DNA of 32,000 nucleotides from Candidatus Arthromitus sp. SFB-mouse-Japan (GTDB lineage: Bacteria > Bacillota > Clostridia > Clostridiales > Clostridiaceae): NCBI RefSeq assembly GCF_000270205.1, contig NC_015913.1:1140001-1172000 (forward strand), read 5' to 3'. Both the position numbers and the translations under genes were made by a program. Below are positions 1,030 to 30,163 of this stretch, piece after piece. Numbering within the stretch: the stretch's first letter is position 1; every line of letters begins with the position of its first letter. The notes under the pieces are model-generated. The model saw nothing but the letters and a program-made list of their open reading frames with translations. It made no database searches and was not told the origin of the DNA.

Positions 1030-2190
1030 TTAAACTGAAAATTCCCATATAACTCTTTCCCTTATGTGATCTTGTTCAAAATTATTAATATCAAAATAGT
1101 TGCCTGTCTCACCAAATGTAGTATCAACTTCAATCCAAGAATCTGATTCATCAATGTAAACCTCATTCCAAGCATGGTTTATCCAACTAGTTCCATTGTA
1201 TCCTTTACCAACCACAATACGAGTTGGCAACTGTATACTTTCTGCAAGTACAGAATAAAGGCTCGCATAGTCAAAACAAATTCCCAATTTGCTTTCAAAT
1301 GCAGAAATAGCTCCAGATAAATTACTGAAATCTTCATTTAATATATCATTTGATTTTTCCTCATCATATTCAAGCATATTTATCACATCATCATATAATT
1401 TTCTCGCCTTATCATAAGAGTTAACTAGTCCTTTCGTACTTTGTACAGCAAATTCTACAATTTCATCAGTACTTCTTGTTGCCTCATCTATCGTAACTCC
1501 ATTATACAAATACTTTATGTTATTTGACCTAATATCATTAAATGTATCTAAAATAGGATTAAAAATATTAAGCATGATCTCATTTAAATCATACTTAAAT
1601 GGAACTATAATTCTATTAGATATACTTTTATATAAGTTAGATGAATTTATAAGTTTATTAATCTTATTATTCTCTGTCAAAAACATGGAAAATGTATTAA
1701 GAGCGAAAATAAAAATTAATACAATAAGAATTGCTTTTGGAGCTTTTATAATTCCAAATACTACATATCTAAATATATTTGGAAGTTGAAATAAAAACTT
1801 ATGAGATTTAATAACCATGTTTTTAAACAATATAATATGAATACACCTACATATTAAATTATAAATCATAAATACTAAAACGAATAATCCTACCTTCAAT
1901 ATAAATCCAATCAATGTATTATCTGCACGATTTATATTAAAAACATTCAAAACCAAATAATATAATTCATAAGCAATAATATCATAAGATAAATAAACAA
2001 GATAAATAGAAATTACATTTATATAAAATCCAATATCACGAAAAATATATTGTAACTTATTATACTTAACAATTCCTCTAAACAAAGTAAAAATAAACAA
2101 TACCACAATAAAAATAGATATAATACCATTGTCTAAGGTATCTATTAATAAATTAAACAACCCGTAATCCCCTTTAAAGTAGACATCCAA
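1030..2190 (-). CDS. Polytopic membrane protein with C-terminal transglutaminase-like (Cys-His-Asp) core
   Basis: The N-terminal half has several hydrophobic helices. The C-terminal part reads GICFDYASLYSVLAESIQLPTRIVVG...WINHAWNEVYIDESDSWIEVDTT, the ordered Cys / His / Asp signature of transglutaminase-like domains. Confidence 0.8.
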   Translation of the reverse strand: MDVYFKGDYGLFNLLIDTLDNGIISIFIVVLFIFTLFRGIVKYNKLQYIFRDIGFYINVISIYLVYLSYDIIAYELYYLVLNVFNINRADNTLIGFILKVGLFVLVFMIYNLICRCIHIILFKNMVIKSHKFLFQLPNIFRYVVFGIIKAPKAILIVLIFIFALNTFSMFLTENNKINKLINSSNLYKSISNRIIVPFKYDLNEIMLNIFNPILDTFNDIRSNNIKYLYNGVTIDEATRSTDEIVEFAVQSTKGLVNSYDKARKLYDDVINMLEYDEEKSNDILNEDFSNLSGAISAFESKLGICFDYASLYSVLAESIQLPTRIVVGKGYNGTSWINHAWNEVYIDESDSWIEVDTTFGETGNYFDINNFEQDHIRERVIWEFSV

Positions 2191-2204
2191 TGTAACAAAA
2201 TCAT

Positions 2205-2669
2205 CTAATTTTTCAAATAAACTTGATCTATTATTTTAGTCGCTAAGTCATAATCATATCCTTTTCCAATTAGGTGACAAAATAGCTTGTGTCTAATTTT
2301 AAATACCTCAAATTTATCTTTAATTACATCATACTTCTTTTGACATATCTTAACGCCTATTTCTATCTTTTGTTCATCAGATATTTTTGAAAATTCCGCC
2401 TTTAAAAATTCATTATCTAATCCCTTAAGAATTAAATCAAAAAATATTTTCTTTTCACCATACTTTAATAAGTTCTTATTTATGTAATTTCTAGCATATC
2501 TGTAATCATTTATAAAGTTGTACTCCAACAAGTATTTGATTACATCATCTGCTACATTTGGATCAACACATTTATCCAAAAGATACTTTTTCATTTCTTT
2601 TTGCGTTTTGTCATACCGATTTAATAACTTTAATGCTAAGTTTTTCGCAATTATAAATTCTCTACTCAT
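2205..2669 (-). CDS. recX: RecX-family regulatory protein
   Basis: 154 aa, all-helical repeat character. AKNLALKLLNRYDKTQKEMKKYLLDK...DDVIKYLLEYNFINDYRYARNYI is typical of RecX three-repeat proteins. Starts 3 nt after the upstream peptidase stop (operon). Confidence 0.7.
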   Translation of the reverse strand: MSREFIIAKNLALKLLNRYDKTQKEMKKYLLDKCVDPNVADDVIKYLLEYNFINDYRYARNYINKNLLKYGEKKIFFDLILKGLDNEFLKAEFSKISDEQKIEIGVKICQKKYDVIKDKFEVFKIRHKLFCHLIGKGYDYDLATKIIDQVYLKN

Positions 2670-2671
2670 AA

Positions 2672-3913
2672 CTATTTTCCTTTAAGAATATGAACTGTTG
2701 GATTATTAAAATACTTTTTGCAAACTTCCATTATTTGTCGCTTATTAATATTCCCTATTTTTTCCAAATCTTCCATATATGATTCAATATTTTTATCATA
2801 AAGTAGTTTATCTATTAAATACAATCCAAGTTTTCTATTATCTTCAAGAATTGAATATATAGCTATCAATTGTAGCTTTTTCATCAAATTTAAATTATAA
2901 TAATCAAAATTATAACTGCAATTCTTTATTTCTAATATACATTCATCTATAATTTTCCTAGCTCTATCTATGTTCTCCTTACCAGTCGTACAAAAAATAT
3001 ACATCCCCTTAAATTCGTCACTAATTTCTAATTGTGTATAAATATCATAAGCCAGCCCTTCTTCATCTCTTACTTTCTTAAATAATATAGAATTTGAGCC
3101 TCCTCCAAGTTTATACTCTGCTAATTTTAAAAGTATTTTCTCGCCTTGTTGTAAATCTTTAAACACAAACAAATATGTAACAGTACTTATTTCTAAATCG
3201 CTCTTTTCACTAACTATAGTCTTGGAAATATTTACCTCTTCAATCAATTTTTTATGTGAAATATGTTTTCTTTGCCAGGAGTTAAAATATTTTTTTAATA
3301 AACTAACTATGTACTCTTCACTGTATGAGCTAATAACAACCGCATACGCATTATTCGGAACATAATATTTATTATAAAATTTAATTAAATCATCAGTAGT
3401 TACACTTTCCAATAATTTTCTATCACCTGCTATGTCATACCTTATATGAGATTTTTCAAAAGCTTGTTCATTTAGCTTTAAAAAACTAAACTCCTCATAA
3501 TTTGCATAACATGAATCTAATTCCGAAATTATTATATCTCTCTCAATGTCCATCTCTTCACTATCAAATTTAGGACTCATAACCATGGATGAAATTAATT
3601 CTATACATTTTTCTAAATCATCATCCAATCCATTTATAGATACTACAGTTGAACCATAATCAGTAAATGCATCATAATCCCCACCCAAAAATTCAATAAT
3701 ATTGTTTACTTCATAGTCTTTAAATTTACAATTTGATCTAAATAACATATGTTCAATAAAATGACTAAATCCTCTTTCATTGTCCGTTTCATATGCACTT
3801 CCAATTTTAATTCCAAGATTAAAATTAAAAAATTTACATTGCTTATTTAAAACAAGAATTTTAAATCCATTATCTAAAATAAATTCTTTAAAATTAATTT
3901 TTAAATTTTCCAT
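2672..3913 (-). CDS. M16 (pitrilysin/insulinase) family zinc peptidase
   Basis: Inverted zinc motif HxxEH in GFSHFIEHMLFRS. Start moved to MENLKINF (ATG 3913-3911) because GGAGAAAG (3922-3915) sits just upstream; the track's 3943 start would place the RBS inside the coding sequence. Confidence 0.85.
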   Translation of the reverse strand: MENLKINFKEFILDNGFKILVLNKQCKFFNFNLGIKIGSAYETDNERGFSHFIEHMLFRSNCKFKDYEVNNIIEFLGGDYDAFTDYGSTVVSINGLDDDLEKCIELISSMVMSPKFDSEEMDIERDIIISELDSCYANYEEFSFLKLNEQAFEKSHIRYDIAGDRKLLESVTTDDLIKFYNKYYVPNNAYAVVISSYSEEYIVSLLKKYFNSWQRKHISHKKLIEEVNISKTIVSEKSDLEISTVTYLFVFKDLQQGEKILLKLAEYKLGGGSNSILFKKVRDEEGLAYDIYTQLEISDEFKGMYIFCTTGKENIDRARKIIDECILEIKNCSYNFDYYNLNLMKKLQLIAIYSILEDNRKLGLYLIDKLLYDKNIESYMEDLEKIGNINKRQIMEVCKKYFNNPTVHILKGK

Positions 3914-4023
3914 ACTTTCTCCTAACATTAGATAATAATACAATGTTTTGTAAAAATTTTCCAGTTCATAGGCTATAAATTTATAACTTTTTAATATGTG
4001 AATTTTTATTTAACTTTACGATA

Positions 4024-4060
4024 TAAAAAAACTATGATCTAAAATTAATTAAATCATAGT
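4024..4060 (-). terminator. Rho-independent terminator after the 361-aa DUF4214 protein gene
   Basis: Minus strand: ACTATGAT (4060-4053), loop, ATCATAGT (4038-4031), then T7 (4030-4024). Confidence 0.6.
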
Positions 4061-4066
4061 CAAATT

Positions 4067-5152
4067 CTAAACTTTCAAACCTATTTCTTGCATCAATCTT
4101 AAGTATTCATCACATGTTAACATTTGTTTCAAAACAGCATCACGTGACGTTTTTTTAACTTCACCAACCCAATAATTTTTTCCATCATCATCAGGATCAC
4201 GATCCAATATAACCTTATAAACCTTAGTAACAAAATCTTGATCAGATATTTGTTTGTTTTGGAACTCATTACTATGTATGATTTTTATGATCAAAGTGCT
4301 AACTGATAATGTTTTATCTATTAATTCCTGAGTATTATTTTTAAGTTCTGCACTTGACGGCTTTCTTCCTAATAAAGTTGTATAAATATTTTGTACAAGA
4401 TTCTCTACAATATTTTTCTTCTGAAAATTATGTAAAAATATTTTAGTTACTTTATTAATAGATCCATCATTTAAACTCTTCTGGAATAACAAATTCAAAG
4501 TAATTTTAAGTGGATTATTTGATGGAAATCCTTCAAGATATATGTATGCATATTGTTTAAGCTCTCCAGATACTAAAATATATTTCACTTCAAAGGTAGT
4601 ATTGAAATTACTCCTTAATTCTGGATACACAAGCATGGCTTGTACACTTTTAAGCATATCCCAAGGATCATCTATTTCAACTGCTAAAACTATTTGATTT
4701 TGGTTGTAATACAAAAGTCTTGGATCTCCAACCACTTTTGCAGCTCTAAATTTCTCATTCTTAGCAGTTAAACTTGCTATTCCCTTTATACTTTCCTGAG
4801 ATCTATTCACAATAACATTTACACCCAATTTTACATTATTTATGTTATAAGATTTTGTATTTTGGTTAACAATTATAATGTATTTGTTTTCAGAAATCTG
4901 ATATGTACTTACAGGAACAATCTTATTATCAATTTCAATGAAGAACTCTTTAATAACTCCATTGATATTCTTTTCAACATCCACACTAAATATAAATCTA
5001 TTCTTACCAGATAATTCTCCCAAAAATTTAGTCTTAACGGTAATACTGTTACTATCAATGGTGTTCGCATTTGGTCTTACGGTGAAAATAGATAGTACTA
5101 AAAACATAGCAATAAATAAGGTAAATACTTTATGTTTACATTTAGACAACAA
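4067..5152 (-). CDS. Secreted protein with C-terminal tandem DUF4214-type repeats
   Basis: N-terminal signal-like KVFTLFIAMFLVLSIFTV. The C-terminal ~115 aa (about 4067-4415) carries two copies of the DUF4214-like pattern (IYTTLLGRKPSSAEL..., VYKVILDRDPDDDGKNYWVGEV). TTG start; GGAGGG at 5161-5156 fits the first (5152) or second (5149) TTG. Confidence 0.7.
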   Translation of the reverse strand: MLSKCKHKVFTLFIAMFLVLSIFTVRPNANTIDSNSITVKTKFLGELSGKNRFIFSVDVEKNINGVIKEFFIEIDNKIVPVSTYQISENKYIIIVNQNTKSYNINNVKLGVNVIVNRSQESIKGIASLTAKNEKFRAAKVVGDPRLLYYNQNQIVLAVEIDDPWDMLKSVQAMLVYPELRSNFNTTFEVKYILVSGELKQYAYIYLEGFPSNNPLKITLNLLFQKSLNDGSINKVTKIFLHNFQKKNIVENLVQNIYTTLLGRKPSSAELKNNTQELIDKTLSVSTLIIKIIHSNEFQNKQISDQDFVTKVYKVILDRDPDDDGKNYWVGEVKKTSRDAVLKQMLTCDEYLRLMQEIGLKV

Positions 5153-5290
5153 ATTCCCTCCATTTACTCATTGTTTGATTACAATTATATAACATTCGTG
5201 ACAATTTTTCTATAAATACTTTACAAATTAAGTATTGCTCATAAAACTTATAATTACTTTAAAATTAATTTATTATTTTAAAATATTATC

Positions 5291-5319
5291 TTGAAATTCA
5301 ATAATCTTTCCGATATAAT
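5291..5319 (+). promoter_or_regulatory. Sigma-A promoter of the rubrerythrin gene
   Basis: TTGAAA (5291-5296), exact 17-nt spacer, TATAAT (5314-5319). Lies 68 nt upstream of the ATG. Confidence 0.5.
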
Positions 5320-5324
5320 AATAA

Positions 5325-5361
5325 TTGTTAATTGATAATTGAGTTGTTAATTGATAATTAA
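5325..5361 (+). promoter_or_regulatory. Duplicated Fur/PerR-like operator
   Basis: The 16-nt TTGTTAATTGATAATT occurs twice (5325-5340, 5344-5359; 19-bp period). Each copy holds the Fur-family heptamer TGATAAT. The second copy extends to a 7-1-7 near-palindrome TTAATTG-A-TAATTAA (5347-5361). Position is immediately downstream of the -10. Confidence 0.4.
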
Positions 5362-5386
5362 TTTTTACATTTTGGAGGGTTTTATA

Positions 5387-5929
5387 ATGAAGAAATTTGT
5401 TTGTACTGTTTGTGGATATATAGCTGAGGGGTCTGTTCCTGAAGTTTGTCCTATATGTAAAGCACCAGCTGATAAATTTAACGAACAAACTGGTGATATG
5501 AATTGGGCTGATGATCATGTAATTGGTGTTGCTAAAGGTGTTGATCCTAGAATTGTTGAAGGATTAAAAATGAATTTTGAAGCTGAGTGTACAGAAGTTG
5601 GTATGTACTTAGCAATGTCAAGACAAGCTGATAGAGAAGGTTATCCAGAAGTTGCTGAAGCTTATAAAAGAATAGCTATTGAAGAAGCTGAGCACGCTTC
5701 TAAATTTGCTGAACTTTTAGGAGAAGTTGTTGATAACTCTACTAAGATTAACTTAGAGAAAAGGGTTGCTGCTGAGTATGGAGCTTGTCAAGGTAAGAAA
5801 GATTTAGCTACATTAGCTAAACAATTAAATTTAGATGCTATTCATGATACAGTTCATGAAATGTGTAAAGATGAAGCTAGACACGGAAGGGCATTTAAAG
5901 GGCTTCTTGAAAGATATTTTAAAGCATAG
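5387..5929 (+). CDS. rbr: Reverse rubrerythrin (N-terminal rubredoxin-like Cys4 domain + C-terminal diiron ferritin-like domain)
   Basis: [27 protein letters not shown] (CxxC...CxxC) comes first, then the diiron ligand motifs [26 protein letters not shown]. Start set at ATG 5387, with GGAGGG at 5374-5379 and a 7-nt spacer. The track start 5351 lies inside the operator. Confidence 0.9.
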
Positions 5930-5942
5930 TTTTATTTGAGAA

Positions 5943-5970
5943 CTCATTGATTAAATCAATGGGTTTTTTT
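5943..5970 (+). terminator. Rho-independent terminator of rbr
   Basis: CTCATTGAT (5943-5951) pairs with ATCAATGGG (5955-5963), 8 of 9 bp, followed by T7. Confidence 0.7.
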
Positions 5971-6115
5971 ATTTTTTTGGTATCTTCCATTTAATACTTC
6001 ATTTATAAATTTTATGAAATCTGTATATTAAGTTTTAAAATTCTATTTCGATATAAATCCATATATCTCGAGTTTAAATTATTTGGAATTCACTACTTTT
6101 ATGGGAGAAATCAAT

Positions 6116-7045
6116 ATGAAAAATTCAAAAAATAATAATGATAAAAAACAAAAAAATTATAGAGACAAATCTTATAAAGCAATATCACTTGCTTCTTTAT
6201 CTACTATAGCGTTAACTTTAGGATTAAGTAACTTTAAAGAAGTTAAATCTCTAATGACTAAAGGAGGAACTATTAGATGGTTTGGATCATCTGTTCAAAA
6301 AGTTATACAGCCTGGAAATATGGGGTCTACTGGAAATACAGGAGCTAAAGTTGTAGCTGCAAAGAGTGGTGCTGTTGCTAACGCTACTACAAAAGTTACT
6401 GGTGGTATTAATACTACTAGCCGTGGATTTGCAAAATTCAATCAACAATGGCATAATCCATTTGCTAAACCTTATTTAGATTCTCTTAAAAATCCTTCAA
6501 TAGGAAGTACATCTTCAGTTAAAAAACCTACTAGTGGTACAACTTCATCCAGTACAAAAAATAATTCTAATAGCTCGACAGGAGCTACTGGTAGTTTAAA
6601 ATTACCTGCTACTAATGGATCAACATCAGGATCCCTAAAATTACCAAATAATAACACTACAGAAACACCAAATAGTGGTAACACTACACTGGTAAAAAGA
6701 CCTTCATCTAGTAGTACTTCTAGTAATACTTCTTCTAATGGTGCTGTTAAATTACCTATTGGAGAATACGAAGATGTAACACAAAATCAAAACACAAATA
6801 ATCCAAATACAGGAATGTCAACTGCTAAAAAAGTAGGAATCGGTGTAGCTGCTGTAGCTGGAGCTGGAGCAATCGCTGGTATTATCGCAGGTATAATTAG
6901 TGCTACAAACAGTGCTGGAGGACAATCCTCAGGATCTAACGGTACTAAAGGTCCTACTGTTGTACCAACACCACAGACTCCAACAAATACAAATAAAGTA
7001 ATTAACTCTGGATTAGGAAATCAATATACAGATACAAAAGCATAA
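6116..7045 (+). CDS. S/T/N/G-rich low-complexity protein with N- and C-proximal hydrophobic helices (309 aa)
   Basis: Start at ATG 6116, with GGGAGA at 6103-6108. Basic N-terminus then AISLASLSTIALTLGL. Long polar region with GSLKLP/GAVKLP repeats and VKKPTSG/VKRPSSS motifs. Gly/Ala-zipper helix KKVGIGVAAVAGAGAIAGIIAGIISA near the C-terminus. Confidence 0.7.
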   Translation: MKNSKNNNDKKQKNYRDKSYKAISLASLSTIALTLGLSNFKEVKSLMTKGGTIRWFGSSVQKVIQPGNMGSTGNTGAKVVAAKSGAVANATTKVTGGINTTSRGFAKFNQQWHNPFAKPYLDSLKNPSIGSTSSVKKPTSGTTSSSTKNNSNSSTGATGSLKLPATNGSTSGSLKLPNNNTTETPNSGNTTLVKRPSSSSTSSNTSSNGAVKLPIGEYEDVTQNQNTNNPNTGMSTAKKVGIGVAAVAGAGAIAGIIAGIISATNSAGGQSSGSNGTKGPTVVPTPQTPTNTNKVINSGLGNQYTDTKA

Positions 7046-7096
7046 TAAAATCTAGTTTAATAATTCTCCTTCAATACGAAAAGAGGTGTAATTGTT

Positions 7097-7477
7097 ATGA
7101 ATAATTCTAAAAAAAATGATCACAAAGAACTTACTAAAAAAGCTGTAGCTATTGGTACTGCACTCGGAGTAGTCGCAACAATCGGAACAAATTTAAATAT
7201 TAAAGAAGCTGAAGCTAGAAATCGTAATACTAAATCAAATAAAGAATCTAGAATAAATTCAGATAAAAAATTCTCGCACACTAAGAGACCTTATACAAAT
7301 GCAGATAAAGCAAATCTTGATGAATATAAAGACCAACATATTACAAAGGATTTTATTCCTGAAAATACAGTCACTAAAGATACAAAAGATAATGGATTAG
7401 AAAATAAAAGTTCAAATAGAACTTCAAATAGAACTCCAAAAGTTATTCCTGTTAGTGTTTCAACTGCTAGAAAATAG
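7097..7477 (+). CDS. Small anchored/secreted disordered protein, family member 1 (126 aa)
   Basis: AGAGGTG RBS. N-terminus MNNSKKNDHKELTKKAVAIGTALGVVATIG, polar basic body with TKRPYTN, C-terminal KVIPVSVSTARK. No terminator after the upstream gene, so it is probably co-transcribed. Confidence 0.7.
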   Translation: MNNSKKNDHKELTKKAVAIGTALGVVATIGTNLNIKEAEARNRNTKSNKESRINSDKKFSHTKRPYTNADKANLDEYKDQHITKDFIPENTVTKDTKDNGLENKSSNRTSNRTPKVIPVSVSTARK

Positions 7478-7487
7478 TTTTATATAA

Positions 7488-7525
7488 GGGGATACCTCTC
7501 TAAGGTCTCCCCTATCTTATTTTTT
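7488..7525 (+). terminator. Rho-independent terminator
   Basis: GGGGAtACCT ctct AAGGTcTCCCC hairpin, followed by a TATCTTATTTTTT tail. Confidence 0.75.
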
Positions 7526-7656
7526 GTCAATACCTTTTAAAATTTTTTGTTAATAAAATATAAATCTTCCCACATTTTCAACGAAATATATGATTGTAAA
7601 GCTTACAACTTAAAATTTTTATAGGATGTTTTCTAAAAACAAGGAGGTATTTTCAA

Positions 7657-8181
7657 ATGAGTAATTCAAACAAAAAAAATAATAAAAAAGAGGTTGCTAA
7701 AAAAGCTGTAGCTCTTGGTGCTGCTCTTGGTGTTGTTGCTGGTATCGGTGCTACTATGGCTGGAGGGGCTGAAGAGGCTCACGCTGCTAGAAGACCTTCT
7801 CAATCAACTTCTTCTACAACTAATGCTGAGCAAAACACAACTACTTCAACTAAAAGACCAGCTTCTAATGCTTCTTCTACAACTTCATCAGGTACTTCTA
7901 GAAGTGCTAGAAGTGCTGGAAACAGAAAAGTTTCTGGTAAGGTAGCTGATGCTAAAACTACAGTAAATGAAAATGAAACTAATACAAGTGGCGGTAGAAC
8001 TTCTGGAAGAAATACAACAACTAACAAAAAAGAGGAAACTAAAAAGACTACATCTCACTCATCTGTAAGTGCTAAAAAATCTAAATCTAAAGCTCAACAA
8101 AATAAAGATATGGCGTCAAGGTCTTCAGGCACTGAAAAAACAAATAAAGTTGTTGTTAGTGTTTCAACTGCTAGAAAATAA
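7657..8181 (+). CDS. Small anchored/secreted disordered protein, family member 2 (174 aa)
   Basis: Perfect SD AAGGAGGT (7641-7648) 8 nt before the ATG. N-terminus MSNSNKKNNKKEVAKKAVALGAALGVVAGIGATMAGGAEEAHA, S/T/N/K/R-rich body, C-terminal KVVVSVSTARK. Strong GCT/ACT/TCT/AGA codon preference. Confidence 0.75.
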   Translation: MSNSNKKNNKKEVAKKAVALGAALGVVAGIGATMAGGAEEAHAARRPSQSTSSTTNAEQNTTTSTKRPASNASSTTSSGTSRSARSAGNRKVSGKVADAKTTVNENETNTSGGRTSGRNTTTNKKEETKKTTSHSSVSAKKSKSKAQQNKDMASRSSGTEKTNKVVVSVSTARK

Positions 8182-8192
8182 TTTTAATATAA

Positions 8193-8230
8193 GGGGATAC
8201 CTCTCTAAGGTCTCCCCTATCTTATTTTTT
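8193..8230 (+). terminator. Rho-independent terminator (duplicate of 7488-7525)
   Basis: Identical hairpin and T-tract, offset by 705 bp. Confidence 0.75.
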
Positions 8231-8361
8231 GCAAATACCTTTTAAAATTTTTTGTTAATAAAATATAAATCTTCCCACATTTTCAACGAAATATATGATT
8301 GTAAAGCTTACAACTTAAAATTTTTATAGGATGTTTTCTAAAAACAAGGAGGTATTTTCAA

Positions 8362-8886
8362 ATGAGTAATTCAAACAAAAAAAATAATAAAAAAGAGGTT
8401 GCTAAAAAAGCTGTAGCTCTTGGTGCTGCTCTTGGTGTTGTTGCTGGTATCGGTGCTACTATGGCTGGAGGGGCTGAAGAGGCTCACGCTGCTAGAAGAC
8501 CTTCTCAATCAACTTCTTCTACAACTAATGCTGAGCAAAACACAACTACTTCAACTAAAAGACCAGCTTCTAATGCTTCTTCTACAACTTCATCAGGTAC
8601 TTCTAGAAGTGCTAGAAGTGCTGGAAACAGAAAAGTTTCTGGTAAGGTAGCTGATGCTAAAACTACAGTAAATGAAAATGAAACTAATACAAGTGGCGGT
8701 AGAACTTCTGGAAGAAATACAACAACTAACAAAAAAGAGGAAACTAAAAAGACTACATCTCACTCATCTGTAAGTGCTAAAAAATCTAAATCTAAAGCTC
8801 AACAAAATAAAGATATGGCGTCAAGGTCTTCAGGCACTGAAAAAACAAATAAAGTTGTTGTTAGTGTTTCAACTGCTAGAAAATAA
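8362..8886 (+). CDS. Small anchored/secreted disordered protein, family member 3 (174 aa, protein identical to member 2)
   Basis: Translation is identical to 7657-8181. The two shadow ORFs in the other frames are also identical between copies, which implies nucleotide identity. Confidence 0.75.
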   Translation: MSNSNKKNNKKEVAKKAVALGAALGVVAGIGATMAGGAEEAHAARRPSQSTSSTTNAEQNTTTSTKRPASNASSTTSSGTSRSARSAGNRKVSGKVADAKTTVNENETNTSGGRTSGRNTTTNKKEETKKTTSHSSVSAKKSKSKAQQNKDMASRSSGTEKTNKVVVSVSTARK

Positions 8887-8898
8887 TTTTAATATAAC

Positions 8899-8922
8899 AA
8901 GGACACTGCGAAGTGTCCTTTT
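8899..8922 (+). terminator. Probable terminator after family member 3
   Basis: AAGGACACT gcga AGTGTCCTT hairpin with a short T4 tail. Confidence 0.5.
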
Positions 8923-8967
8923 AACATAATTAAATGGAATTTTGGAATTAACATGGAGGTGTACTAA

Positions 8968-9549
8968 ATGTCTAAGCAGAAAAACAAAAAAGATATTGCT
9001 AAAAAAGCTGTAGCTCTTGGTGCTGCTCTTGGTGTTGTTGCTGGTATCGGTGCTAATATGGCCGGAGGAGCTGAAGAAGCTCACGCGACTACTAGAAGAC
9101 CTTCTCAAACTAGATCAACTAAAAGTCAATCTAGCTCAACTTCTACATCTAAAAGACCAACTTCAAATGCTAAAACTACTGTAAAACAAGAGAATAGTGG
9201 AACAAATGAAAATACAAGAAACTCAAGAACAAACTCATCAGAAGAAAAACAAGAATCTACAAAAACAACAAGAAGAGGTAGGGGAGATAGCTCTACTGAA
9301 AGAAGAAAGAGCCAAGCTAAAGTTATGTCAAATTCTAATGTTGAAAGCGAAGAAGTAGACATAGATAATGAAGAAACAACTGAAGAGACTACAACATCTA
9401 AAAGACCAACTACAAACACAAGTAAATCATATAGAAGTATAAATGAGAAAAAACAAAAATCAAGAGCACTCGTTGAACAAAATAGATCTACTACATCAAC
9501 AGATAGTACTTCACAAAATAAAATTGTTGTTAGAGTATCTACAAAATAA
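8968..9549 (+). CDS. Small anchored/secreted disordered protein, family member 4 (193 aa)
   Basis: GGAGGTG RBS. N-terminus MSKQKNKKDIAKKAVALGAALGVVAGIGANMAGGAEEAHA. The 60 nt at 8996-9055 are identical to 7694-7753 and 8399-8458. The body is divergent, with three (K/R)RP(S/T)xx motifs. C-terminal KIVVRVSTK. Confidence 0.75.
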   Translation: MSKQKNKKDIAKKAVALGAALGVVAGIGANMAGGAEEAHATTRRPSQTRSTKSQSSSTSTSKRPTSNAKTTVKQENSGTNENTRNSRTNSSEEKQESTKTTRRGRGDSSTERRKSQAKVMSNSNVESEEVDIDNEETTEETTTSKRPTTNTSKSYRSINEKKQKSRALVEQNRSTTSTDSTSQNKIVVRVSTK

Positions 9550-9560
9550 TAACTCTTTAG

Positions 9561-9595
9561 AAACAGCAAGATTTTAACTTGCTGTTTATTTTTTT
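9561..9595 (+). terminator. Rho-independent terminator after family member 4
   Basis: AAACAGCAAG (9561-9570) pairs with CTTGCTGTTT (9578-9587), followed by a T-run. Confidence 0.7.
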
Positions 9596-9596
9596 G

Positions 9597-9632
9597 CAAA
9601 AAAATAAAATGGAGAGGAAATTAACCCTCTCC
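9597..9632 (-). terminator. Rho-independent terminator of the 1432-aa protein gene
   Basis: Minus strand: GGAGAGG, loop, CCTCTCC (9632-9611), then ATTTTATTTTTT. Confidence 0.6.
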
Positions 9633-9638
9633 AAAAAA

Positions 9639-12600
9639 TTAATATTTTAATCCCATTCCAACTACCATCTTCATAAACTCTTCTTCATTAATCATTCTAT
9701 CTACAATATATTTCTTTGCATTAAATACATCACCATTTGCATTATTAAGTGCCTCATTGTTGTAGAAGTTTATCCAGAAATTTAATCCTTCTGCATCTGG
9801 ATCTCTATCCACAACTATAGAATAAAGTATCTCAATTAATTTTTCTGTTGTATATTCAAGTTCTGAAAACTCCTTTTCAGCAAATAGTAAATTAATTAGA
9901 AAATCCCTTGCCCCAATATCATGGGTATTTAATCGATTAATCCAATAATCATAACCAACCTCGTCTGGATCTCTTAAAAATGCTCTTCCATAAACATTAT
10001 ATAAGAATGCTTGCCTAGGATTTTCTGCCTCTAAAGTTATATTTTGTATATTAAATGTAATTTCTTTTCCGGTTTCTATTATAATCTTAATTTCTATTGA
10101 AGGATATTCTTTCCCTGGTACAAGTCCCATAACTCCAATATTTCCATTATCATCAATTTGAGCAGATATTCCTTCGATATCACATGATATATTCATCTCT
10201 TTTGTCAAACTAATATCCCCCAAATCTGGAACAGAAAATGCGAATTGATTGCCTTTACCATTAAACTCTTCAATTTCAACAGGATGTTCAAAGATAGTTT
10301 CTTCTACTGGTTTGGTATGAACAATTTTATCTACAGAGAATTTTGTCTTTCCTCCTCCTATTGTAAATTTCTCACTAACAGGCTCTATCATAACGCTATA
10401 ATCCATATTTTCACTTACAAAATTATCTAAATTAAAACTTGTAACCGATATTATATCCGTTTCAATAGTATGAATTTTTACATACTCGCTACTAGTTGTA
10501 GTATTAGATTCTTTTTTCTTATCTGTTTCCTCTGTATTATCCTCACTATCTTCTGGCTTTTTAGTTCCTTTTAAATAAATATTTAATTTATCGCCTTCTG
10601 AAAATTTCGTGTCTAATCCATAAGACCATTTAAGATCAAATGTACTCTTTTTTACCCCTTCTTCTTCTTTTTCACCCTCCTCAACGGTAGCTTTAATACC
10701 TCGATACTCTAATTCAAAATCTATAAAATAAACTTCATTAAAATATCCATGAGGATTATAAGAAATCAACAAGTCGTAATCTTCTGTATAATCTGGAATT
10801 TTACATTCAAAATCAAAAATATCATAGCTAGAAGCACTTGCAATAATTTTATCACTATATTGTTTGTGTTCTGGAAGTTTATAAAACACATCTACATATG
10901 TTTCTAAATACTTAATTACTTCCATATCATTAACAAGATCACTCTTTATTCTTAAAGTATTTCCATTCCTAGAATCTATCCTACAATTCTTAATTTCCAA
11001 TTTTTTTGATCTAAAATCTATAGTTGTATCTGCAATATCATTCGCTTTCGTCTTATAAGTAAGAAGAACATCATACTCTATATCCGGTAAAATCGGAAGT
11101 ATATTAAATTTAGTCAGGTCTTCTAATTTATTCCCTCCATCATGATATGTTATTATATTAGGCTCTTTAGGATAATTTTTTTCACTTTTATGTTTAGTAT
11201 ATATTTCCAATGAATCCCCATCAGAAAATATATAATCTTTTGGATGATGAATATCTACAATAGCATAATACTCAGTTACATCACCTATATTTAGAGACGA
11301 ATTTGCAGAAATTGTTTTAAACTCCAAAGTCTTTTCAAATTTTACATTACTTATTGTATAAACAAGTTTAGCTGTATAATCCATATCCATATAAGTTACA
11401 ATTCCTTCACCTTTCAACACACCACTAACTTCAGATCCAATTCTTGAAAAAGAAGACCCAGCAGGATATCCATTGATAATTTTTCTCTTAATATAAATCT
11501 CAACTTTATCTTTTTCATCAAAGTTTATAAATTCTTCAGATACTTTCCATTCAAAACTAGCACTATTAGGTCTAATCGCTGTTGTTTTAAATTCATCTAT
11601 AGTAAATTGGTTAGTCTTTTGATTTTCAAATTTCTTTTCCAAAGTTTTTATTCCATCTCCATTTGTAGAACTCTCTCTCGTCTTAATATTCCTTGTAACT
11701 AAATTTTGTGTTTCTTCTGTTCCTTCTTCTTCCTCAGATGAATCTCCACTATCTACATCTTCTGATGTCTCACCATCTCCGCTACCTTCAACAGTTTCAC
11801 CAGATCCATTACCACTACCTGATTCACTATTATCTTCTCCTCCAGTACCAGTTCCATTATCTCCTCCCTCAGATGAACCTGTATCACCTTCGCCAGATCC
11901 TTCAGTACCAGTTCCACCATCTTCTCCTTCAGATGAAATAGTATCTTTATCTTTTAGCTCATTCTTTGTCTTAAACTCAATTTTAAAATCATATTCTTTA
12001 TCTGGAACCAAGTACCCAATAATTACCTCGTTTAAACTCAACAAATTAACTGGATTATCTCCACTATTACTATGAATATATTCTTTATCTGGATCAGTAG
12101 AAAAAGTCTTACTAGTTCCATTCCTAAGTTTCTTAAATAACCTTATACTGTCTCCTTCTTCAAACTTAAAATTTTCTGAATATTCCAATTGAAATATAAC
12201 TTCATTTACTTTCTTATCTTTAATTGAAATTTTCACTGTATCACTAGTGCTAGTATTTGATCCACTGCCTTCTCCACCCTCTGAATCTGTTGAATCTTCT
12301 TGCGAATTATCACTTGCACTATCTGATTCACCTTCTTTAATCAATTGGTATCTAACAAATGAATTATTAGTCAAATCACTATAACTTACATATTCTCTGC
12401 CATCAATGTAATAGACAAATTTGAAATCATATTCCTTACTTATATCTCTTCCTAAAGTCAAAATACATGATCTTAACTTATTTAAATCTCTATTTGCATA
12501 AAATTGTGGCTCATTTGGATATTCTGAACTCTCTTTTTCCTTGATAAAAATCTTAAAAGAATCATCATTTCTGAAATTAAAATTAGGTGCTATCAATTCC

Positions 12601-13937
12601 CATGTAAATTTCACATTTACATTATTATCACTATCCACTATAGGTTCAACATAAATATCCTTTATACTAAATGGAAGAGTCATAAAACTTTCACTTTTAA
12701 TCGCCAAAGATCTCCCATCTGAATATTCAATTTCATAATCAATATTGTATTTTGTATTTGCTTTCAAATCTTTGTACTCAAACACATATTTATCTATTTT
12801 TGAAAAATTCATTAAATCCTTAGAAAAAACTTTTTTCCTAGACAATTTATCATTCTGCTCTTCAATATAAATATTTAGCTTATCTTCAAATTTAAAATTT
12901 ACATCATTTATAAAACTAAATTGGATCAATAAATCTTTCAAATTAATTACGCTTACATCTGTATATAAAGTAAAAAAATCATTAATCTGTCTTATTTCTC
13001 TCTCAATTGTTCTTCCTCCGAACATATACAAGAGCTTTATATCGTATAGCTCAGATAATTCTTTCAATTCGACCAAACTTAATTTAGCTTCCTCATCAGT
13101 TATCTTAACATCGGGGATAATCGAATAATTTATATCATTTTTTCCCTTAATATAAATATTAATTGAATCATTATCAATAAATTTAAAATCATTTGATGTA
13201 GTATCCCATTTTACTTCAATCAAATTGTTGTTAATCATCATTGAACTCATATTTGAGATATCAAAATCTTTGCTCCTTATAACCTTATCAAATACTAAAC
13301 TAACATTATCCTTTAAATTAATGACATATCTAACATCGTATGTGGTAGCTGGGTGTAATGAAATATCTTTGAATTTAAAAATATTTCGAAGATTGTTTAT
13401 TTCCTTATTTGATTTCTTAATATGAAAATCAAATTTTCCTTTCTCATCATTTTCCAATCTTTTACCATAAATTTCAATTCCATCTATAAAAATTAAATTC
13501 TTTCTATCATACCTAAATATAACATCGCAAGAATTAATTCCAATATCATGAACTCCAAAACTATTTTCCAAATATTTAAACTTCGATATTTGACTAGTTA
13601 TTTCATGTGATGATATATCAATTAGTGAAACTTTTAATTCGTACCCAACATTATTTTGCAATTCATCATATATAAAAAATTGTTTATCAATTTTATTAAT
13701 TTTAACCTCATCTCCAGAGATCAAATTTTTCAAACTCACATTATCTATTTCATATCTATCATTACCCGATACAATTTGCAAAAAATTTCCACCATTAACT
13801 ATGTAAATAGGAACACCTATATTATCTGATGCATAACTCAGTTTAACACTTAAATTAAAACAGGACATCATAAATAAAAAAACGAACAATCCAAAATATA
13901 TCATAAATTTCATTGTTGTCTTAAATAAATTATTCAC
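9639..13937 (-). CDS. Giant secreted multi-repeat (Fn3/Ig-like beta-sandwich) protein with acidic G/S/E/D linkers and C-terminal tandem DUF4214-type repeats
   Basis: GTG start preceded by GGTGGGGGG. Signal-like MKFMIYFGLFVFLFMMSCF...SYA. At least 7 repeats share the pattern xF(K/N/I)Fxx(D/E)Dx(L/I)x(I/L)(Y/F)(I/T/L)K ... YD(I/F/V)K(L/F)xY. Acidic low-complexity linkers at about 12230-12320 and 11705-11945. C-terminal NVYGRAFLRDPDEVGYDYWINRL and ILYSIVVDRDPDAEGLNFWINFY. Confidence 0.85.
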   Translation of the reverse strand: MNNLFKTTMKFMIYFGLFVFLFMMSCFNLSVKLSYASDNIGVPIYIVNGGNFLQIVSGNDRYEIDNVSLKNLISGDEVKINKIDKQFFIYDELQNNVGYELKVSLIDISSHEITSQISKFKYLENSFGVHDIGINSCDVIFRYDRKNLIFIDGIEIYGKRLENDEKGKFDFHIKKSNKEINNLRNIFKFKDISLHPATTYDVRYVINLKDNVSLVFDKVIRSKDFDISNMSSMMINNNLIEVKWDTTSNDFKFIDNDSINIYIKGKNDINYSIIPDVKITDEEAKLSLVELKELSELYDIKLLYMFGGRTIEREIRQINDFFTLYTDVSVINLKDLLIQFSFINDVNFKFEDKLNIYIEEQNDKLSRKKVFSKDLMNFSKIDKYVFEYKDLKANTKYNIDYEIEYSDGRSLAIKSESFMTLPFSIKDIYVEPIVDSDNNVNVKFTWELIAPNFNFRNDDSFKIFIKEKESSEYPNEPQFYANRDLNKLRSCILTLGRDISKEYDFKFVYYIDGREYVSYSDLTNNSFVRYQLIKEGESDSASDNSQEDSTDSEGGEGSGSNTSTSDTVKISIKDKKVNEVIFQLEYSENFKFEEGDSIRLFKKLRNGTSKTFSTDPDKEYIHSNSGDNPVNLLSLNEVIIGYLVPDKEYDFKIEFKTKNELKDKDTISSEGEDGGTGTEGSGEGDTGSSEGGDNGTGTGGEDNSESGSGNGSGETVEGSGDGETSEDVDSGDSSEEEEGTEETQNLVTRNIKTRESSTNGDGIKTLEKKFENQKTNQFTIDEFKTTAIRPNSASFEWKVSEEFINFDEKDKVEIYIKRKIINGYPAGSSFSRIGSEVSGVLKGEGIVTYMDMDYTAKLVYTISNVKFEKTLEFKTISANSSLNIGDVTEYYAIVDIHHPKDYIFSDGDSLEIYTKHKSEKNYPKEPNIITYHDGGNKLEDLTKFNILPILPDIEYDVLLTYKTKANDIADTTIDFRSKKLEIKNCRIDSRNGNTLRIKSDLVNDMEVIKYLETYVDVFYKLPEHKQYSDKIIASASSYDIFDFECKIPDYTEDYDLLISYNPHGYFNEVYFIDFELEYRGIKATVEEGEKEEEGVKKSTFDLKWSYGLDTKFSEGDKLNIYLKGTKKPEDSEDNTEETDKKKESNTTTSSEYVKIHTIETDIISVTSFNLDNFVSENMDYSVMIEPVSEKFTIGGGKTKFSVDKIVHTKPVEETIFEHPVEIEEFNGKGNQFAFSVPDLGDISLTKEMNISCDIEGISAQIDDNGNIGVMGLVPGKEYPSIEIKIIIETGKEITFNIQNITLEAENPRQAFLYNVYGRAFLRDPDEVGYDYWINRLNTHDIGARDFLINLLFAEKEFSELEYTTEKLIEILYSIVVDRDPDAEGLNFWINFYNNEALNNANGDVFNAKKYIVDRMINEEEFMKMVVGMGLKY

Positions 13938-14067: not shown

Positions 14068-15525
14068 TTATGTTATATTATTTATTACAATTGTTCCATT
14101 ACCATCAATGTTATCGCTCAAAGTTATATTTGATAATATCAAATTCGGCTTATCAAAATTTATACTCTTTACATCTGATACGATATCTTCCTTAGAAATT
14201 AAAATATCATAGCTATCTTCAGTTAAATTATTTTTTATATATTCATCATCAAATGCAATAACATTGCTTGACAAATTAAACTCCTCATACAAAAAGTTTT
14301 TCAAACTCCTAGCAAGCTCTATATAATTATCATCAGAATACGTAACTATTTTTAAAGTCGTCTTCTCTTCAAAATTATATTTCTCAAGTTCCTTCCTCAA
14401 ATACTCAACATTAAATTTATATTTATTTAAACTATCTCCATTAATTCCATTTATGTGTCTTATATCCTTAACATCAACTATAAAATTCAAGAAATTTCCT
14501 TTTTCAATCTTCTCTTCCTCATTTTTAATTACATTGCCATCTTCATCTTTTTGCTCATCTTCAATATTTTTTGATACCTCTGCTATACTTTCATCACTTA
14601 TATATTTATCCAAATCAAAAATCATTTTAGAATCCTCATTATGTACATAATAAATTTGGTCAGAATCAAAATAATCAGAAATAGAATTGTACGCCGTATC
14701 AAGTACAAAATTCAGTTTACCAGATTTATAAGATTCAAGTGCAAACTCTCGAGTTGGAAACGCTTCAATTACTACATCTTTATCTCTTGAAATAGAATAC
14801 AATTTTCCATCCGATGTCTTGTAATTATTTAAATAATAATATTCATTCGGACTTAAGACTATTTTTAAATTCCCATTATGATCATTCTTAACAGAGGATA
14901 TCTTATACGCACCTGAATAAGATATGTACTCATAGAAATCTTTATAATTATACAAATATTTAAAATTTTCCCTCAAAGAAAATTTATCCTTTGTTAAATT
15001 TTTCAAAAATAATTCATCCATCTGTTTAAGCTTAATAACAAGAACATTATCTTTTAAAGACTCAATTCCAACATGCTCAAAAAGTATTTCACCTTTATAG
15101 TATTCATCCACGCCAACAATAAATTTTAATTCATCATAATAAAATTTATCTTTATCCTTATCTAAAATATCCTTAAAGAAATTCAAAAAATCCTGTGATG
15201 TTATTTGCTTACCCGTACTCATATAAGCATCATTTCTTATATAAAATCTATACTCAAGTCCATCACTAGAAATTGTATATCTCTCTGCAAGTCCAGATGA
15301 AATATCCCCATCGGGTGTAAGATTCACAAGCCCCTCAAATAAATTCCCAAGCATAACATTACTCACATAATTATTATCAGATAGATATACTAAATTTTCA
15401 GGAAGATTAACAACTCCAATAGATAAACCTGTCTTATCTAATATTAAATCTTTCTTCTGAAAAACATTAAACGCTAAATTAAAAATCAAAAAAACTATTA
15501 ACAAAATTACTTTTATTATCCTCAT
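14068..15525 (-). CDS. Extracellular solute-binding protein, family 5 (Opp/Dpp-type), orphan
   Basis: The N-terminal region LFEGLVNLTPDGDISSGLAERYTISSDGLEYRFYIRNDAYMSTGKQITSQDFLNFF matches the hallmark family-5 SBP pattern. It has an N-terminal hydrophobic anchor and no lipobox Cys. No permease or ATPase genes are nearby. Confidence 0.75.
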   Translation of the reverse strand: MRIIKVILLIVFLIFNLAFNVFQKKDLILDKTGLSIGVVNLPENLVYLSDNNYVSNVMLGNLFEGLVNLTPDGDISSGLAERYTISSDGLEYRFYIRNDAYMSTGKQITSQDFLNFFKDILDKDKDKFYYDELKFIVGVDEYYKGEILFEHVGIESLKDNVLVIKLKQMDELFLKNLTKDKFSLRENFKYLYNYKDFYEYISYSGAYKISSVKNDHNGNLKIVLSPNEYYYLNNYKTSDGKLYSISRDKDVVIEAFPTREFALESYKSGKLNFVLDTAYNSISDYFDSDQIYYVHNEDSKMIFDLDKYISDESIAEVSKNIEDEQKDEDGNVIKNEEEKIEKGNFLNFIVDVKDIRHINGINGDSLNKYKFNVEYLRKELEKYNFEEKTTLKIVTYSDDNYIELARSLKNFLYEEFNLSSNVIAFDDEYIKNNLTEDSYDILISKEDIVSDVKSINFDKPNLILSNITLSDNIDGNGTIVINNIT

Positions 15526-26500: not shown

Positions 26501-26981
26501 ATTGCTCAATAAACAAATACTTAAATAATTCATCAATTTTATTCTCGCTTTTAAGCTTAAGAATATATTCTCTATCGACATAAAAATCCAAATCATCAAA
26601 ATATGTAACTATATCAGGATCAATCTTATTCTTATTTAAAGACGACAAAACCCTAATACCAGATGGAAGATAATTATTAATTTCCATAAATCTTATAGCA
26701 ATTACACGATTGAACCAAGTATAAGCAGCTTCCTCAACAATAGAATCAAATCCTCTTTCACTAATTTTCTTAACTAAAATTTCTCTTTTCTCTATATCTT
26801 GTCCAAAAATTCTATATACCCTATCTGCTCCTATTTTATACTCCTCATACTCATTCCCATCTCTTACACCTTCTTGTACATGATCTTTCGTAATACCAAG
26901 TAAAAGAAGCTTATCAGTTACTTCCTTTATTAAACTTTTCCTCGCCCAAACAGCAAAATTTTTAATTACATTCTTATTCAT
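23514..26981 (-). CDS. pglX: BREX-type adenine-specific DNA methyltransferase PglX
   Basis: About 1155 aa. N-terminus MNKNVIKNFAVWARKSLIKEV is typical of PglX. SAM-binding motif IIDPCMGSGHIL (about 26047-26076). Catalytic VVTNPPY (NPPY = 25551-25562). Long C-terminal extension. ATG at 26981 overlaps the brxC stop within ATGAATAA. Confidence 0.9.
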   Translation of the reverse strand: MNKNVIKNFAVWARKSLIKEVTDKLLLLGITKDHVQEGVRDGNEYEEYKIGADRVYRIFGQDIEKREILVKKISERGFDSIVEEAAYTWFNRVIAIRFMEINNYLPSGIRVLSSLNKNKIDPDIVTYFDDLDFYVDREYILKLKSENKIDELFKYLFIEQCNALNEILPGIFKKTNDYRNLLFPVNLSNENSFIRKIIEEIDEKYFFNNVEIIGWLYQYYITEKKDEIFRRLKQNIKISKENIPSVTQIFTPKWIVKYMVENSLGRFYIENSGESEFPVKLKYFVDAEIGEPDFKNISPEDIKIIDPCMGSGHILVYAFDLLFEIYKEYGYLESEIPYLIFENNLFGIDIDDRAYELAYFALMMKGRSRFRKFLRNNNIKFNLYPIIESNEIYDSVLAKASILEHDKFYDVKYILDSFRDSKEYGSLLSVKKLDFDSIEDAIYPYLNEEELYCMKNLINLSRLLSSKYHIVVTNPPYMSSRGMGEKLALYLKENYPNSKMDLFSVFIERGFELTHDNGFNVMLTMQSWMFLYKFEKLRKSISESNTIVSLLHMDNNVMSIAFGTSATIFKKKSIEDYEGIYNYVKYEDINASGEPTNFPISHNRNSRIKLKSFDDVPGSPINYWISERAREIFREFKPLKEYFEPKQGMATTDNKTFVRYWYELNKSDIEFCSKNHNDVKNIDKKWFPYNKGGDYRKWYGNNEYIIKYENSGENLINFVKAKYPRITDPEFVIKNRKYYFKKGITWSLFGFKNFGVRYKDYGFIFDVSGSSLFPDKKYEKYILAFLCSNVCFYLLSSIAPTVNFQIGNIGDLPIIMDDSYLDDITKLANRNIYLCKKEWDFYETSWDFKVHPSIEFKISGRLKDSYDNFYREVETMFEEVKRNEERINFIFKEIYGFSDEVSYEVEDGNVSIRKIDEKKFVESFLSYFVGCVFGRYSLDYEKVIDNVDNIFKRDYEKFYPEKDNILIISTEEYFKNDIYNLFLKFLEIVFDKEFIDENLRFVCSSLGFKGGSYRENIVQYFLKDFFKNHSKIYNKCPIYFEFCSGKNNGINALTYIHRFSSEDFLKFKINYLDIIEHKYEEEILRFENIYENEKFLKSKKYKETLILKLEECKKYNQIIKCISEKFIEINLEDGISNIYEKLQKEGDFYNQNIFK

Positions 26982-30153: not shown

Positions 30154-30163
30154 ATTACACCTC

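Follow-up and report, generated by a model that had tools for sequence, protein, structure and literature searches.

The 32,000-nucleotide stretch analysed here (the window: positions 1,140,001 to 1,172,000, forward strand, of contig NC_015913.1, assembly GCF_000270205.1) comes from Candidatus (Ca.) Arthromitus sp. SFB-mouse-Japan, a segmented filamentous bacterium (SFB). Between positions 7097 and 9549, it contains four consecutive plus-strand genes of 126, 174, 174 and 193 aa, exactly as claimed in a first-pass annotation made from the sequence alone. The four genes are real and encode one small protein family. A hidden Markov model (HMM) of the family, compared with 368 six-frame open reading frames (ORFs) of the window, matches only these four members (E 1e-29 to 1e-46), and the next best match has an E of 0.9. 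The genes, their repeat structure and their signals are arranged as follows.

7097..7477, plus strand: member 1 (type 1), 126 aa, SFBM_1069; predicted signal peptide codons 1-40, ending ...KEAEA before RN; mature chain 86 aa, pI 10.05
7657..8181, plus strand: member 2 (type 2), 174 aa; predicted signal peptide codons 1-43, ending ...EEAHA before ARRPS; mature chain 131 aa, pI 11.3, net charge +18
8362..8886, plus strand: member 3 (type 2), 174 aa; second copy, nucleotide-identical to member 2
8968..9549, plus strand: member 4 (type 4), 193 aa; predicted signal peptide codons 1-40; mature chain 153 aa, pI 10.3; two more KRP motifs
~7471..8897, plus strand: tandem repeat of two 705-bp units, starting inside the 3' end of member 1
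7694..7753, plus strand: 60-nt block in the signal-peptide core, exactly identical to 8399-8458 and 8996-9055; putative gene-conversion tract
7082-7088, plus strand: Shine-Dalgarno of member 1, AGAGGTG
7641..7648, plus strand: Shine-Dalgarno of member 2, AAGGAGGT; equal sequence at 8346-8353 for member 3
8955-8961, plus strand: Shine-Dalgarno of member 4, GGAGGTG
7487..7513, plus strand: terminator hairpin after member 1, GGGGAUACC...CCCC, -15.1 kcal/mol, U-rich tail
8192..8218, plus strand: terminator hairpin after member 2, copy of the GGGGAUACC hairpin
8899..8920, plus strand: hairpin after member 3, of a different kind, -13.3 kcal/mol, poor U-tract
9561..9587, plus strand: terminator after member 4, hairpin

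Each 705-bp unit consists of the 3' end encoding VSVSTARK, the terminator, an upstream region and a type-2 gene. Four family ORFs are thus present as described earlier. As members 2 and 3 are nucleotide-identical through this duplication, however, the window holds three distinct paralogs and not four. The identity of the 60-nt block was checked at all three coordinates and is exact, and the block is the longest exact run common to members 2 and 4.

Each of the four proteins begins with a basic N-terminus and a hydrophobic segment rich in Gly and Ala, then has an A-x-A site and (K/R)RP motifs, and ends in a C-terminus of the V-x-V-S-T-K type. All motifs quoted in the first-pass annotation were found as written: the helix KKAVA(L/I)G(A/T)ALGVVA(G/T)IG, GGAEEAHA in members 2-4, the (K/R)RP motifs TKRPYTN, ARRPSQS, TKRPASN, SKRPTSN and SKRPTTN, and the C-terminal ends KVIPVSVSTARK, KVVVSVSTARK and KIVVRVSTK. 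An alignment of 23 sequences from the SFB lineage, in which the terminal motifs are conserved among orthologues, separates into three orthologous types.

Type 1: 95-126 aa in the alignment of orthologues
Type 2: 155-186 aa; R(S/T)AG(N/S)R(K/R)VSGK, and SHSSV..KK..SKA..NK..ASR...NKVVVSVST
Type 4: 164-211 aa; second KRP in SKRP..KSYKS(I/V)(E/D)(E/D)KK..SK; RRKSQ.KV motif; NKI(I/V)(I/V).VSTK

Only five columns are invariant in the 23 sequences: Met1, one Ala, and the R, P and N of the first (T/S)(K/R)RPxxN motif. The first [KR]RP was computed to lie 16-25 residues past the A-x-A site in 22 of the 23. Moreover, all prolines of mature member 2 (2/2) and of mature member 4 (3/3) are located inside [KR]RP, which was the case for 16 and 1 of 100,000 shuffles, respectively.

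Sequence searches with all members against Pfam, NCBIfam and PDB gave nothing above noise. With hmmscan against Pfam at E<=1, members 2 and 4 had no match and member 1 only sub-threshold matches to unrelated families, and an Rfam scan of 5900-9700 gave no match. The earlier description of an unrecognised, exported paralogous family agrees with this outcome, as these searches and the profile searches place the members in no annotated family. A word-indexed search of 5.8 billion clusters retrieved two matches, and 14 clusters were retrieved from 1.84 billion representative proteins (50% identity) when HMMER was run exhaustively with a family profile. A second search with the 14-sequence profile added two further sequences of the same kind and no new type. 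Scanning one genome per species of the Genome Taxonomy Database (GTDB) detected the family in a Ca. Arthromitus metagenome-assembled genome and in Ca. Dwaynia gallinarum, and a scan of the Joint Genome Institute (JGI) metagenomes yielded a single short locus. The family is confined to one locus of the SFB lineage.

As far as could be searched, the family is uncharacterised, and its genes are already deposited as hypothetical proteins, the only annotation they carry in GenBank. Member 1 is identical to 'hypothetical protein SFBM_1069' of SFB-mouse-Japan and to proteins of strains Yit, NYU and SU, and the window is 99.87% identical to SFB-mouse-Yit (AP012209) over 1097-13478. Short-read contigs repeatedly stop in or beside the array (L001, L002, L004, L008-L014, L017, L018, L023-L025), and chimeric or truncated protein calls occur in the family (P0001, P0026, P0028). 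Identical tandem copies break short-read assemblies at this locus; hence, SFB genomes derived from metagenomes, like protein databases, contain too few members of the family or truncated ones.

The conservation of the family was compared with that of its neighbours. Identities are given below for mouse SFB versus locus L019, locus L016 and Ca. Dwaynia, in that order, and dN/dS was calculated by the Nei-Gojobori method for mouse SFB versus L019.

Type 2: identity 80 / 66 / 63%; dN/dS 0.24, disordered body alone 0.24
Type 4: identity 66 / 46 / 47%; dN/dS 0.36, body 0.35
Type 1: dN/dS 0.45; body 0.83, from 56 codons only
Upstream surface protein: identity 55 / 36 / 39%; dN/dS 0.46
Rubrerythrin: identity 94 / 93 / 93%; dN/dS 0.06

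The disordered bodies of types 2 and 4 are thus under purifying selection. They read as strings of conserved short motifs, unlike a diversifying antigen. The large differences lie between ancient paralog types, the orthologues being conserved relative to their neighbours. The hypervariable, antigen-like middles proposed earlier are therefore not retained: the variation is found between paralog types, while the bodies of orthologues are conserved.

The same data leave next to no chance that the genes are spurious ORFs in low-complexity, AT-rich DNA. Their composition is of low complexity, and several long ORFs overlap them in other frames. Furthermore, an exact look-up of types 2 and 4 in the protein collection gave no match. 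Both are nevertheless called in public genomes, and the missing match is taken as a gap in the database. On the other hand, frame, start, stop, Shine-Dalgarno and terminators are kept in at least six SFB species, and the dN/dS values are 0.24-0.45. This conservation refutes the spurious reading.

Over the signal-peptide core (20 codons), the 19 codons that mouse type 4 has in common with mouse type 2 show 0 synonymous differences, whereas the comparison of mouse type 4 with its own L019 orthologue gives 3 in 18 codons. At the nucleotide level, the mouse type 4 core is 95% identical to L019 type 2 and 88% to L019 type 4. The signal peptides of types 2 and 4 are still distinct from each other in L016 and Ca. 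Dwaynia. This pattern supports a recent conversion tract from type 2 to type 4 in the mouse lineage, and the gene conversion suggested by the first-pass annotation for the 5' block is borne out by the synonymous counts.

The copy number of type 2 varies. One copy is present in L019 and in assembly AFXW01 (possibly collapsed), two in the window, Yit, NYU and Ca. Dwaynia, and three identical copies in L016. Across genomes, each type-2 unit carries its own ribosome-binding site (AAGGAGGT/GGGAGGT), upstream region and terminator. That type 2 has repeatedly been amplified in tandem is suggestive of a dosage effect. In SFB-mouse-NYU (AGAG01000001; L007 6561-7085), the first type-2 copy has a stop at codon 7 and is called as 141 aa from a later start, which is either a sequencing error in an A-run or a pseudogenised copy.

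The perfect AAGGAGGT Shine-Dalgarno described for members 2 and 3 and the GGAGGTG of member 4 are present. A strong terminator had been described after each of members 1-3. The GGGGAUACC hairpin meets this description after members 1 and 2, but the weaker hairpin of member 3 with its poor U-tract does not, and read-through past 8899-8920 into member 4 is possible. A conserved block was found ~55-70 nt before the type-2 ATG in five SFB species (CGA[AC]AT[AT]T; consensus TTCGAAATATATAACATAAT, mouse AACGAAATATATGATTGT; window 7583-7600 and 8288-8305). It is a candidate promoter or operator, matched to no sigma factor.

The codon bias, from which high expression had been deduced, is real. The family uses GCT, AGA and AAA at 0.83, 0.91 and 0.90, versus 0.42, 0.59 and 0.63 in the other genes. 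The bias is common to rubrerythrin and the upstream gene, the sole other plus-strand genes compared. Outside the 5.3-9.6 kb island, all genes are on the minus strand except a small tetratricopeptide repeat (TPR) ORF at 615-977, and the GC skew is -0.2 to -0.5, compared with near 0 inside. The bias is inseparable from strand composition and hence provides no evidence for high expression.

The order of features at the N-terminus fits export by Sec and processing by signal peptidase I: a Lys-rich n-region (5-7 Lys in the window members), a core rich in Gly, Ala, Val and Leu with a Kyte-Doolittle 12-residue maximum of 1.85-2.67 over the 23 sequences, helix-breaking Gly/Asn, and (A/V/T)-x-A. The -1 Ala of this site is an invariant alignment column, and position -3 is A, V or T in 23/23 by reading of the alignment; the A-x-A test was rule-based, and the site of the L016 member 1 was set by eye (SEEVNA before R). 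The c-region otherwise varies between species (GGAEEAHA, TNGQEAQA, DNGQEVQA, MGGEDASA). A -1 Ala that stays constant inside a variable c-region argues for a functional signal-peptidase I site rather than an uncleaved anchor. A Sec signal peptide removed by cleavage at the A-x-A site is therefore the likely arrangement, as judged from sequence. In SFB, Sec is present and the twin-arginine translocation (Tat) system is absent (PMC3158464).

The first-pass annotation had favoured an oligomerising glycine-zipper membrane anchor. The family would then be type II membrane proteins with an uncleaved signal-anchor, whose Gly/Ala-rich helix may self-associate, while a cationic disordered chain of 90-150 aa crosses the wall and the C-terminal strand docks near the outer surface. 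The c-region is indeed long for a cleaved signal (~11-13 residues), and the hydrophobic stretch, with its GxxxG-type spacing, can be read as ~20 residues (19-22), with a Kyte-Doolittle 19-residue mean of 1.5-2.2. In addition, the segment is more conserved than is usual for signal peptides (75-84% identity between mouse SFB and L019, and kept in all three types), and the 309-aa neighbour upstream has a segment of similar Gly/Ala-rich composition as a genuine C-terminal anchor. However, concerted evolution or gene conversion accounts for part of this conservation, the AlphaFold helix stops at residue 21-25, ahead of the Gly-rich stretch, and an anchor leaves unexplained the -1 Ala, one of the five invariant columns, and the constant choice at -3. 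The anchor is considered unlikely, though well short of negligible, and a cleaved signal peptide is preferred to it. A specialised targeting role of the N-terminal segment is possible.

Cut at the A-x-A site, the mature chains would measure 86, 131 and 153 aa, with pI values of 10.05, 11.3 and 10.3 and net charges of +9, +18 and +11. Each mature protein has 9-14 hydrophobic residues (under 10-16%). AlphaFold2 with the family alignments gave a mean predicted local distance difference test (pLDDT) of 56 for type 2 and 53 for type 4, and a predicted template modelling score (pTM) of 0.17-0.19; the mature chains are predicted to be mostly disordered. Besides the N-terminal helix, one basic helix is modelled at 137-156 in type 2 and 158-173 in type 4 (pLDDT 70-82), which ends ~10-18 residues ahead of the V-x-V-S-T tail.

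Taking together the family itself, its restriction to one locus of one lineage, the purifying selection, the signal-peptide-like architecture, the predicted disorder, the variation in copy number and the conversion tract, we tentatively infer that these are abundant polycationic proteins of the SFB envelope or surface, Sec-exported and held non-covalently; cleavage, location, abundance and function all form part of this proposal. After signal peptidase I has cut behind (A/V/T)-x-A, an intrinsically disordered, polycationic chain of 86-153 aa (pI 10-11.3) would be freed. It would present up to three conserved elements: R-P-x-x-N, located 16-25 residues behind the cleavage site; a basic helix of roughly 20 residues (types 2 and 4); and an amphipathic, strand-like tail (K/R)-(I/V)-(I/V)-(I/V)-x-(V/I)-S-T-K. 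The SFB genome has no sortase gene (PMC7474095), so retention would be non-covalent: their charge would presumably bind the proteins to anionic wall polymers, while R-P-x-x-N and the C-terminal helix-strand module would dock to partner proteins. A single surface-protein locus would keep three ancient paralog types, with type 2 amplified in tandem and the paralogs swapping 5' sequence by gene conversion.

Several observations weigh against this proposal, apart from the long c-region and the length of the hydrophobic stretch. Codon usage, as an argument for abundance, is confounded by strand. A scan for promoter-like sites gave no enrichment (16 versus 13.8 expected from shuffles), and the searchable literature contains no mention of these genes and no transcript or peptide data. 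Finally, a disordered chain rich in Lys and Arg is expected to be very sensitive to trypsin in the ileal lumen, which disfavours free exposure unless it is shielded or glycosylated.

This protease sensitivity would favour a protected compartment, and the proteins could instead belong to the matrix or envelope of the spore or of the intracellular offspring, where they would be exported between offspring and mother cell and be safe from luminal proteases. SFB offspring bear a stage-specific S-layer whose composition is not established (PMC12780176), and the composition of the family is like that of the CotG-like basic, Ser/Lys/Arg-rich coat proteins. CotG-type proteins, however, lack a signal peptide and are internally repetitive, and no internal tandem repeats were found in the family. 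Neither a sporulation-type promoter could be assigned nor sporulation genes found at the locus, and this alternative is regarded as improbable.

A host-directed function would make the proteins secreted adhesins, or cargo entering epithelial cells at the attachment site, with short linear motifs (RGD in some) binding host molecules. The family is limited to a lineage that attaches to the epithelium, its cationic disordered chains contain short conserved motifs, and SFB proteins are known to pass into enterocytes (PMC7027583). Member 4 contains an RGD tripeptide (9280-9288, residues 105-107, context RRGRGDSS), found at the same aligned position in L019 type 4 (RRGDEN) and in P0023 (SRGDGN); its chance rate is ~1% per shuffled sequence. 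In the other 7/10 type-4 orthologues, however, the position is RGN, RGS or GRE, and with only 3/10 carrying it, RGD was rejected as a conserved integrin motif. No host-driven diversification is apparent, as dN/dS is <1 and type 2 is more conserved than the neighbouring surface proteins, and the chains would be trypsin-labile. A host-directed role is accordingly rated as unlikely. A pattern resembling a bipartite nuclear localisation signal near the second KRP of type 4 was also discarded: it fails the strict regular expression in the mouse proteins and occurs in 16-22% of shuffles.

A very improbable reading is that of precursors of secreted signalling peptides, in which the C-terminal end is the pheromone, as in Phr, NprX and PapR. 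All the proteins have a variable middle between the signal peptide and a conserved C-terminal end, and an orphan oligopeptide-type solute-binding protein is conserved 4.5 kb off. No RRNPP-type receptor is adjacent, though, as the sole TPR ORF (615-977) is six genes distant. Moreover, the precursors are 2-4 times the known lengths, the middles are under purifying selection with motifs of their own, and three paralog types with dosage amplification fit signalling poorly.

For the preferred envelope or surface proteins, a more specific assignment can be considered. Cryo-electron tomography has revealed an offspring-specific S-layer, a 'hair-like layer' of the filament (~5 nm spacing) and hair-like structures at the tip implicated in attachment, all without molecular identity (PMC12780176). 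It is a long shot that the hair-like layer or the tip structures are built from, or tethered by, members of the family. In that case, the cationic disordered chain would be each 'hair', with R-P-x-x-N and the C-terminal helix-strand module docking it to partners in the wall or S-layer, and the tandem amplification of type 2 would supply the mass needed. This would make the locus, in which a probable T-cell antigen is encoded as well, a core determinant of the SFB surface met by the host.

SFB are the model commensals for the induction of T helper 17 (Th17) cells and immunoglobulin A, and these effects hinge on intimate attachment to the gut epithelium. Their surface-layer and holdfast molecules are undefined, and the organism is genetically intractable. 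A compact, lineage-specific, probably exported family with conserved motifs, purifying selection and dosage amplification provides candidates for antibodies, immuno-electron microscopy, surface proteomics and antigen screens. Experiments are justified by the organism and the locus, but the sequence gives no sign of an unprecedented mechanism.

One synteny was observed in all contexts fetched (L001-L004, L016-L019, L023-L025): rubrerythrin, a Ser/Thr-rich membrane-anchored protein (~280-440 aa), the family, a convergent giant DUF4214 protein and SBP_bac_5. The immediate neighbours in the window are the following.

6116..7045, plus strand: 309-aa protein rich in S, T and N; signal peptide, Gly/Ala-rich transmembrane segment at the C-terminal side, conserved tail; always directly upstream of the family
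9639..13937, minus strand: giant DUF4214 protein, 1432 aa, C-terminal DUF4214; always directly downstream of and convergent with the family
4067-5152, minus strand: DUF4214 protein, 361 aa; with the 9639-13937 protein it brackets the locus, both being secreted and ending in DUF4214

The surrounding genes are chromosomal. On the left side, the minus strand encodes a transglutaminase-like membrane protein, recX, an M16 peptidase and the 361-aa DUF4214 protein, followed on the plus strand by rubrerythrin, the 309-aa protein and the family. Further minus-strand genes are those of the 1432-aa DUF4214 protein and the orphan SBP_bac_5, then ligA, pcrA, a pseudouridine synthase, an SLT lytic transglycosylase, a Y_Y_Y protein, BREX-like PglX and BrxC, and pgi. 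The giant DUF4214 protein contains long acidic Gly/Ser/Glu/Asp low-complexity inserts and repeated ~100-aa modules. It is fast-evolving (44% full-length identity between mouse SFB and L016), with its C-terminal ~260 aa kept (58-79%). The orphan SBP_bac_5 (oligopeptide-type solute-binding protein; 14068-15525, minus strand) has no adjacent permease and lies beside the giant DUF4214 gene in all SFB loci examined. At 23514-30165 (minus strand), an Eco57I-type methylase (PglX-like, 1156 aa) and a BrxC-domain ATPase (1063 aa) are adjacent and overlapping; between housekeeping genes, they look like part of a BREX (bacteriophage exclusion) phage-defence system.

The 309-aa protein was rejected as a distant fifth member, since hhalign matched only 15 columns of its Gly/Ala-rich transmembrane segment. 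It contains the peptide IRWFGSSVQKV (6275-6307), which may be the second SFB Th17 epitope (SFBNYU_004990) reported by Yang et al. (2014). Among the relatives of the 309-aa protein, no stretch is better conserved than the one that holds this peptide, T(I/V)RFYGSNG.RVI. The second antigen is named SFBNYU-004940 in a review; by gene order, SFBNYU_004990 or SFBNYU-004940 would fall in the locus. Searches of the literature with the peptide and the locus tags found nothing on the upstream gene as the second Th17 antigen. At 6443-6473, the same protein differs from Yit, NYU and SU by six substitutions within 31 nt, which alter five residues (Q110K, H113P, A117T, P119I, Y120H), compared with about 10 differences in the remaining 12 kb. 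Such clustering suggests that a short patch of a probable antigen has been replaced locally.

The family can be compared with other surface candidates of SFB. The Cluster.1 and Cluster.3 DUF4214 (PF13946) proteins (Pamp et al. 2012, PMC3371716) are also restricted to the lineage, and secretion and a place at the surface are likewise predicted for them. The family described here, on the contrary, has no PF13946 match, is 10 times smaller and disordered, and ends in a short strand-like tail instead of a helical domain. The 'Cluster.4 hypothetical proteins' of that paper might be this family.

Serine-rich repeat glycoproteins such as GspB, Fap1 and SraP, exported by the accessory Sec system, are likewise Ser/Thr-rich, and their signal peptides, too, have a long basic n-region and a hydrophobic core that contains glycines. 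They are 1000-5000 aa long and possess KxYKxGKxW, long dipeptide repeats, LPXTG and a secA2/secY2-glycosyltransferase locus. In the family, KxYKxGKxW and internal tandem repeats are absent, and there are no secA2/secY2/gtf neighbours within the 32 kb window. LPXTG is absent as well, the C-termini being ...NKVVVSVSTARK or ...NKIVVRVSTK with no C-terminal transmembrane segment. No lipoprotein lipobox is present, as none of the window members has a Cys in its first 50 residues. A double-glycine leader does not apply either: GG occurs only in mouse SFB and L019 (NG, DG or GA in the other orthologues), and the window contains no ABC exporter.

CotG-like spore-coat proteins of Bacillus are similarly small, strongly basic, disordered and Ser/Lys/Arg-rich, and belong to a spore-forming Firmicute. 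They have no signal peptide, contain tandem repeats and are encoded next to the kinase gene cotH; the family has the predicted signal peptide and no internal tandem repeats, and no CotH domain was found in the window. The Phr, NprX and PapR pro-peptides are small Sec-exported proteins whose C-terminal end is also the most conserved mature part. Those precursors are about 40-60 aa long and encoded beside a TPR-type receptor, whereas the family measures 95-211 aa, has conserved middle motifs and exists in three types. Its neighbours in all loci are a membrane protein and a DUF4214 protein, with no TPR receptor.

In its genetics, the family is reminiscent of the Mycoplasma Vsp and Vlp proteins, with tandem paralogs, conserved recombining 5' signal-peptide regions, charged low-complexity bodies and variation in copy number. 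It differs from them in having neither a lipobox cysteine nor promoter phase-variation repeats, and its orthologues are under purifying selection instead of being diversified. The family would work like the general class of Sec-exported, basic, non-covalently bound surface proteins of Gram-positive bacteria, with a tandem, recombining 5' end that recalls variable surface families without their diversification.

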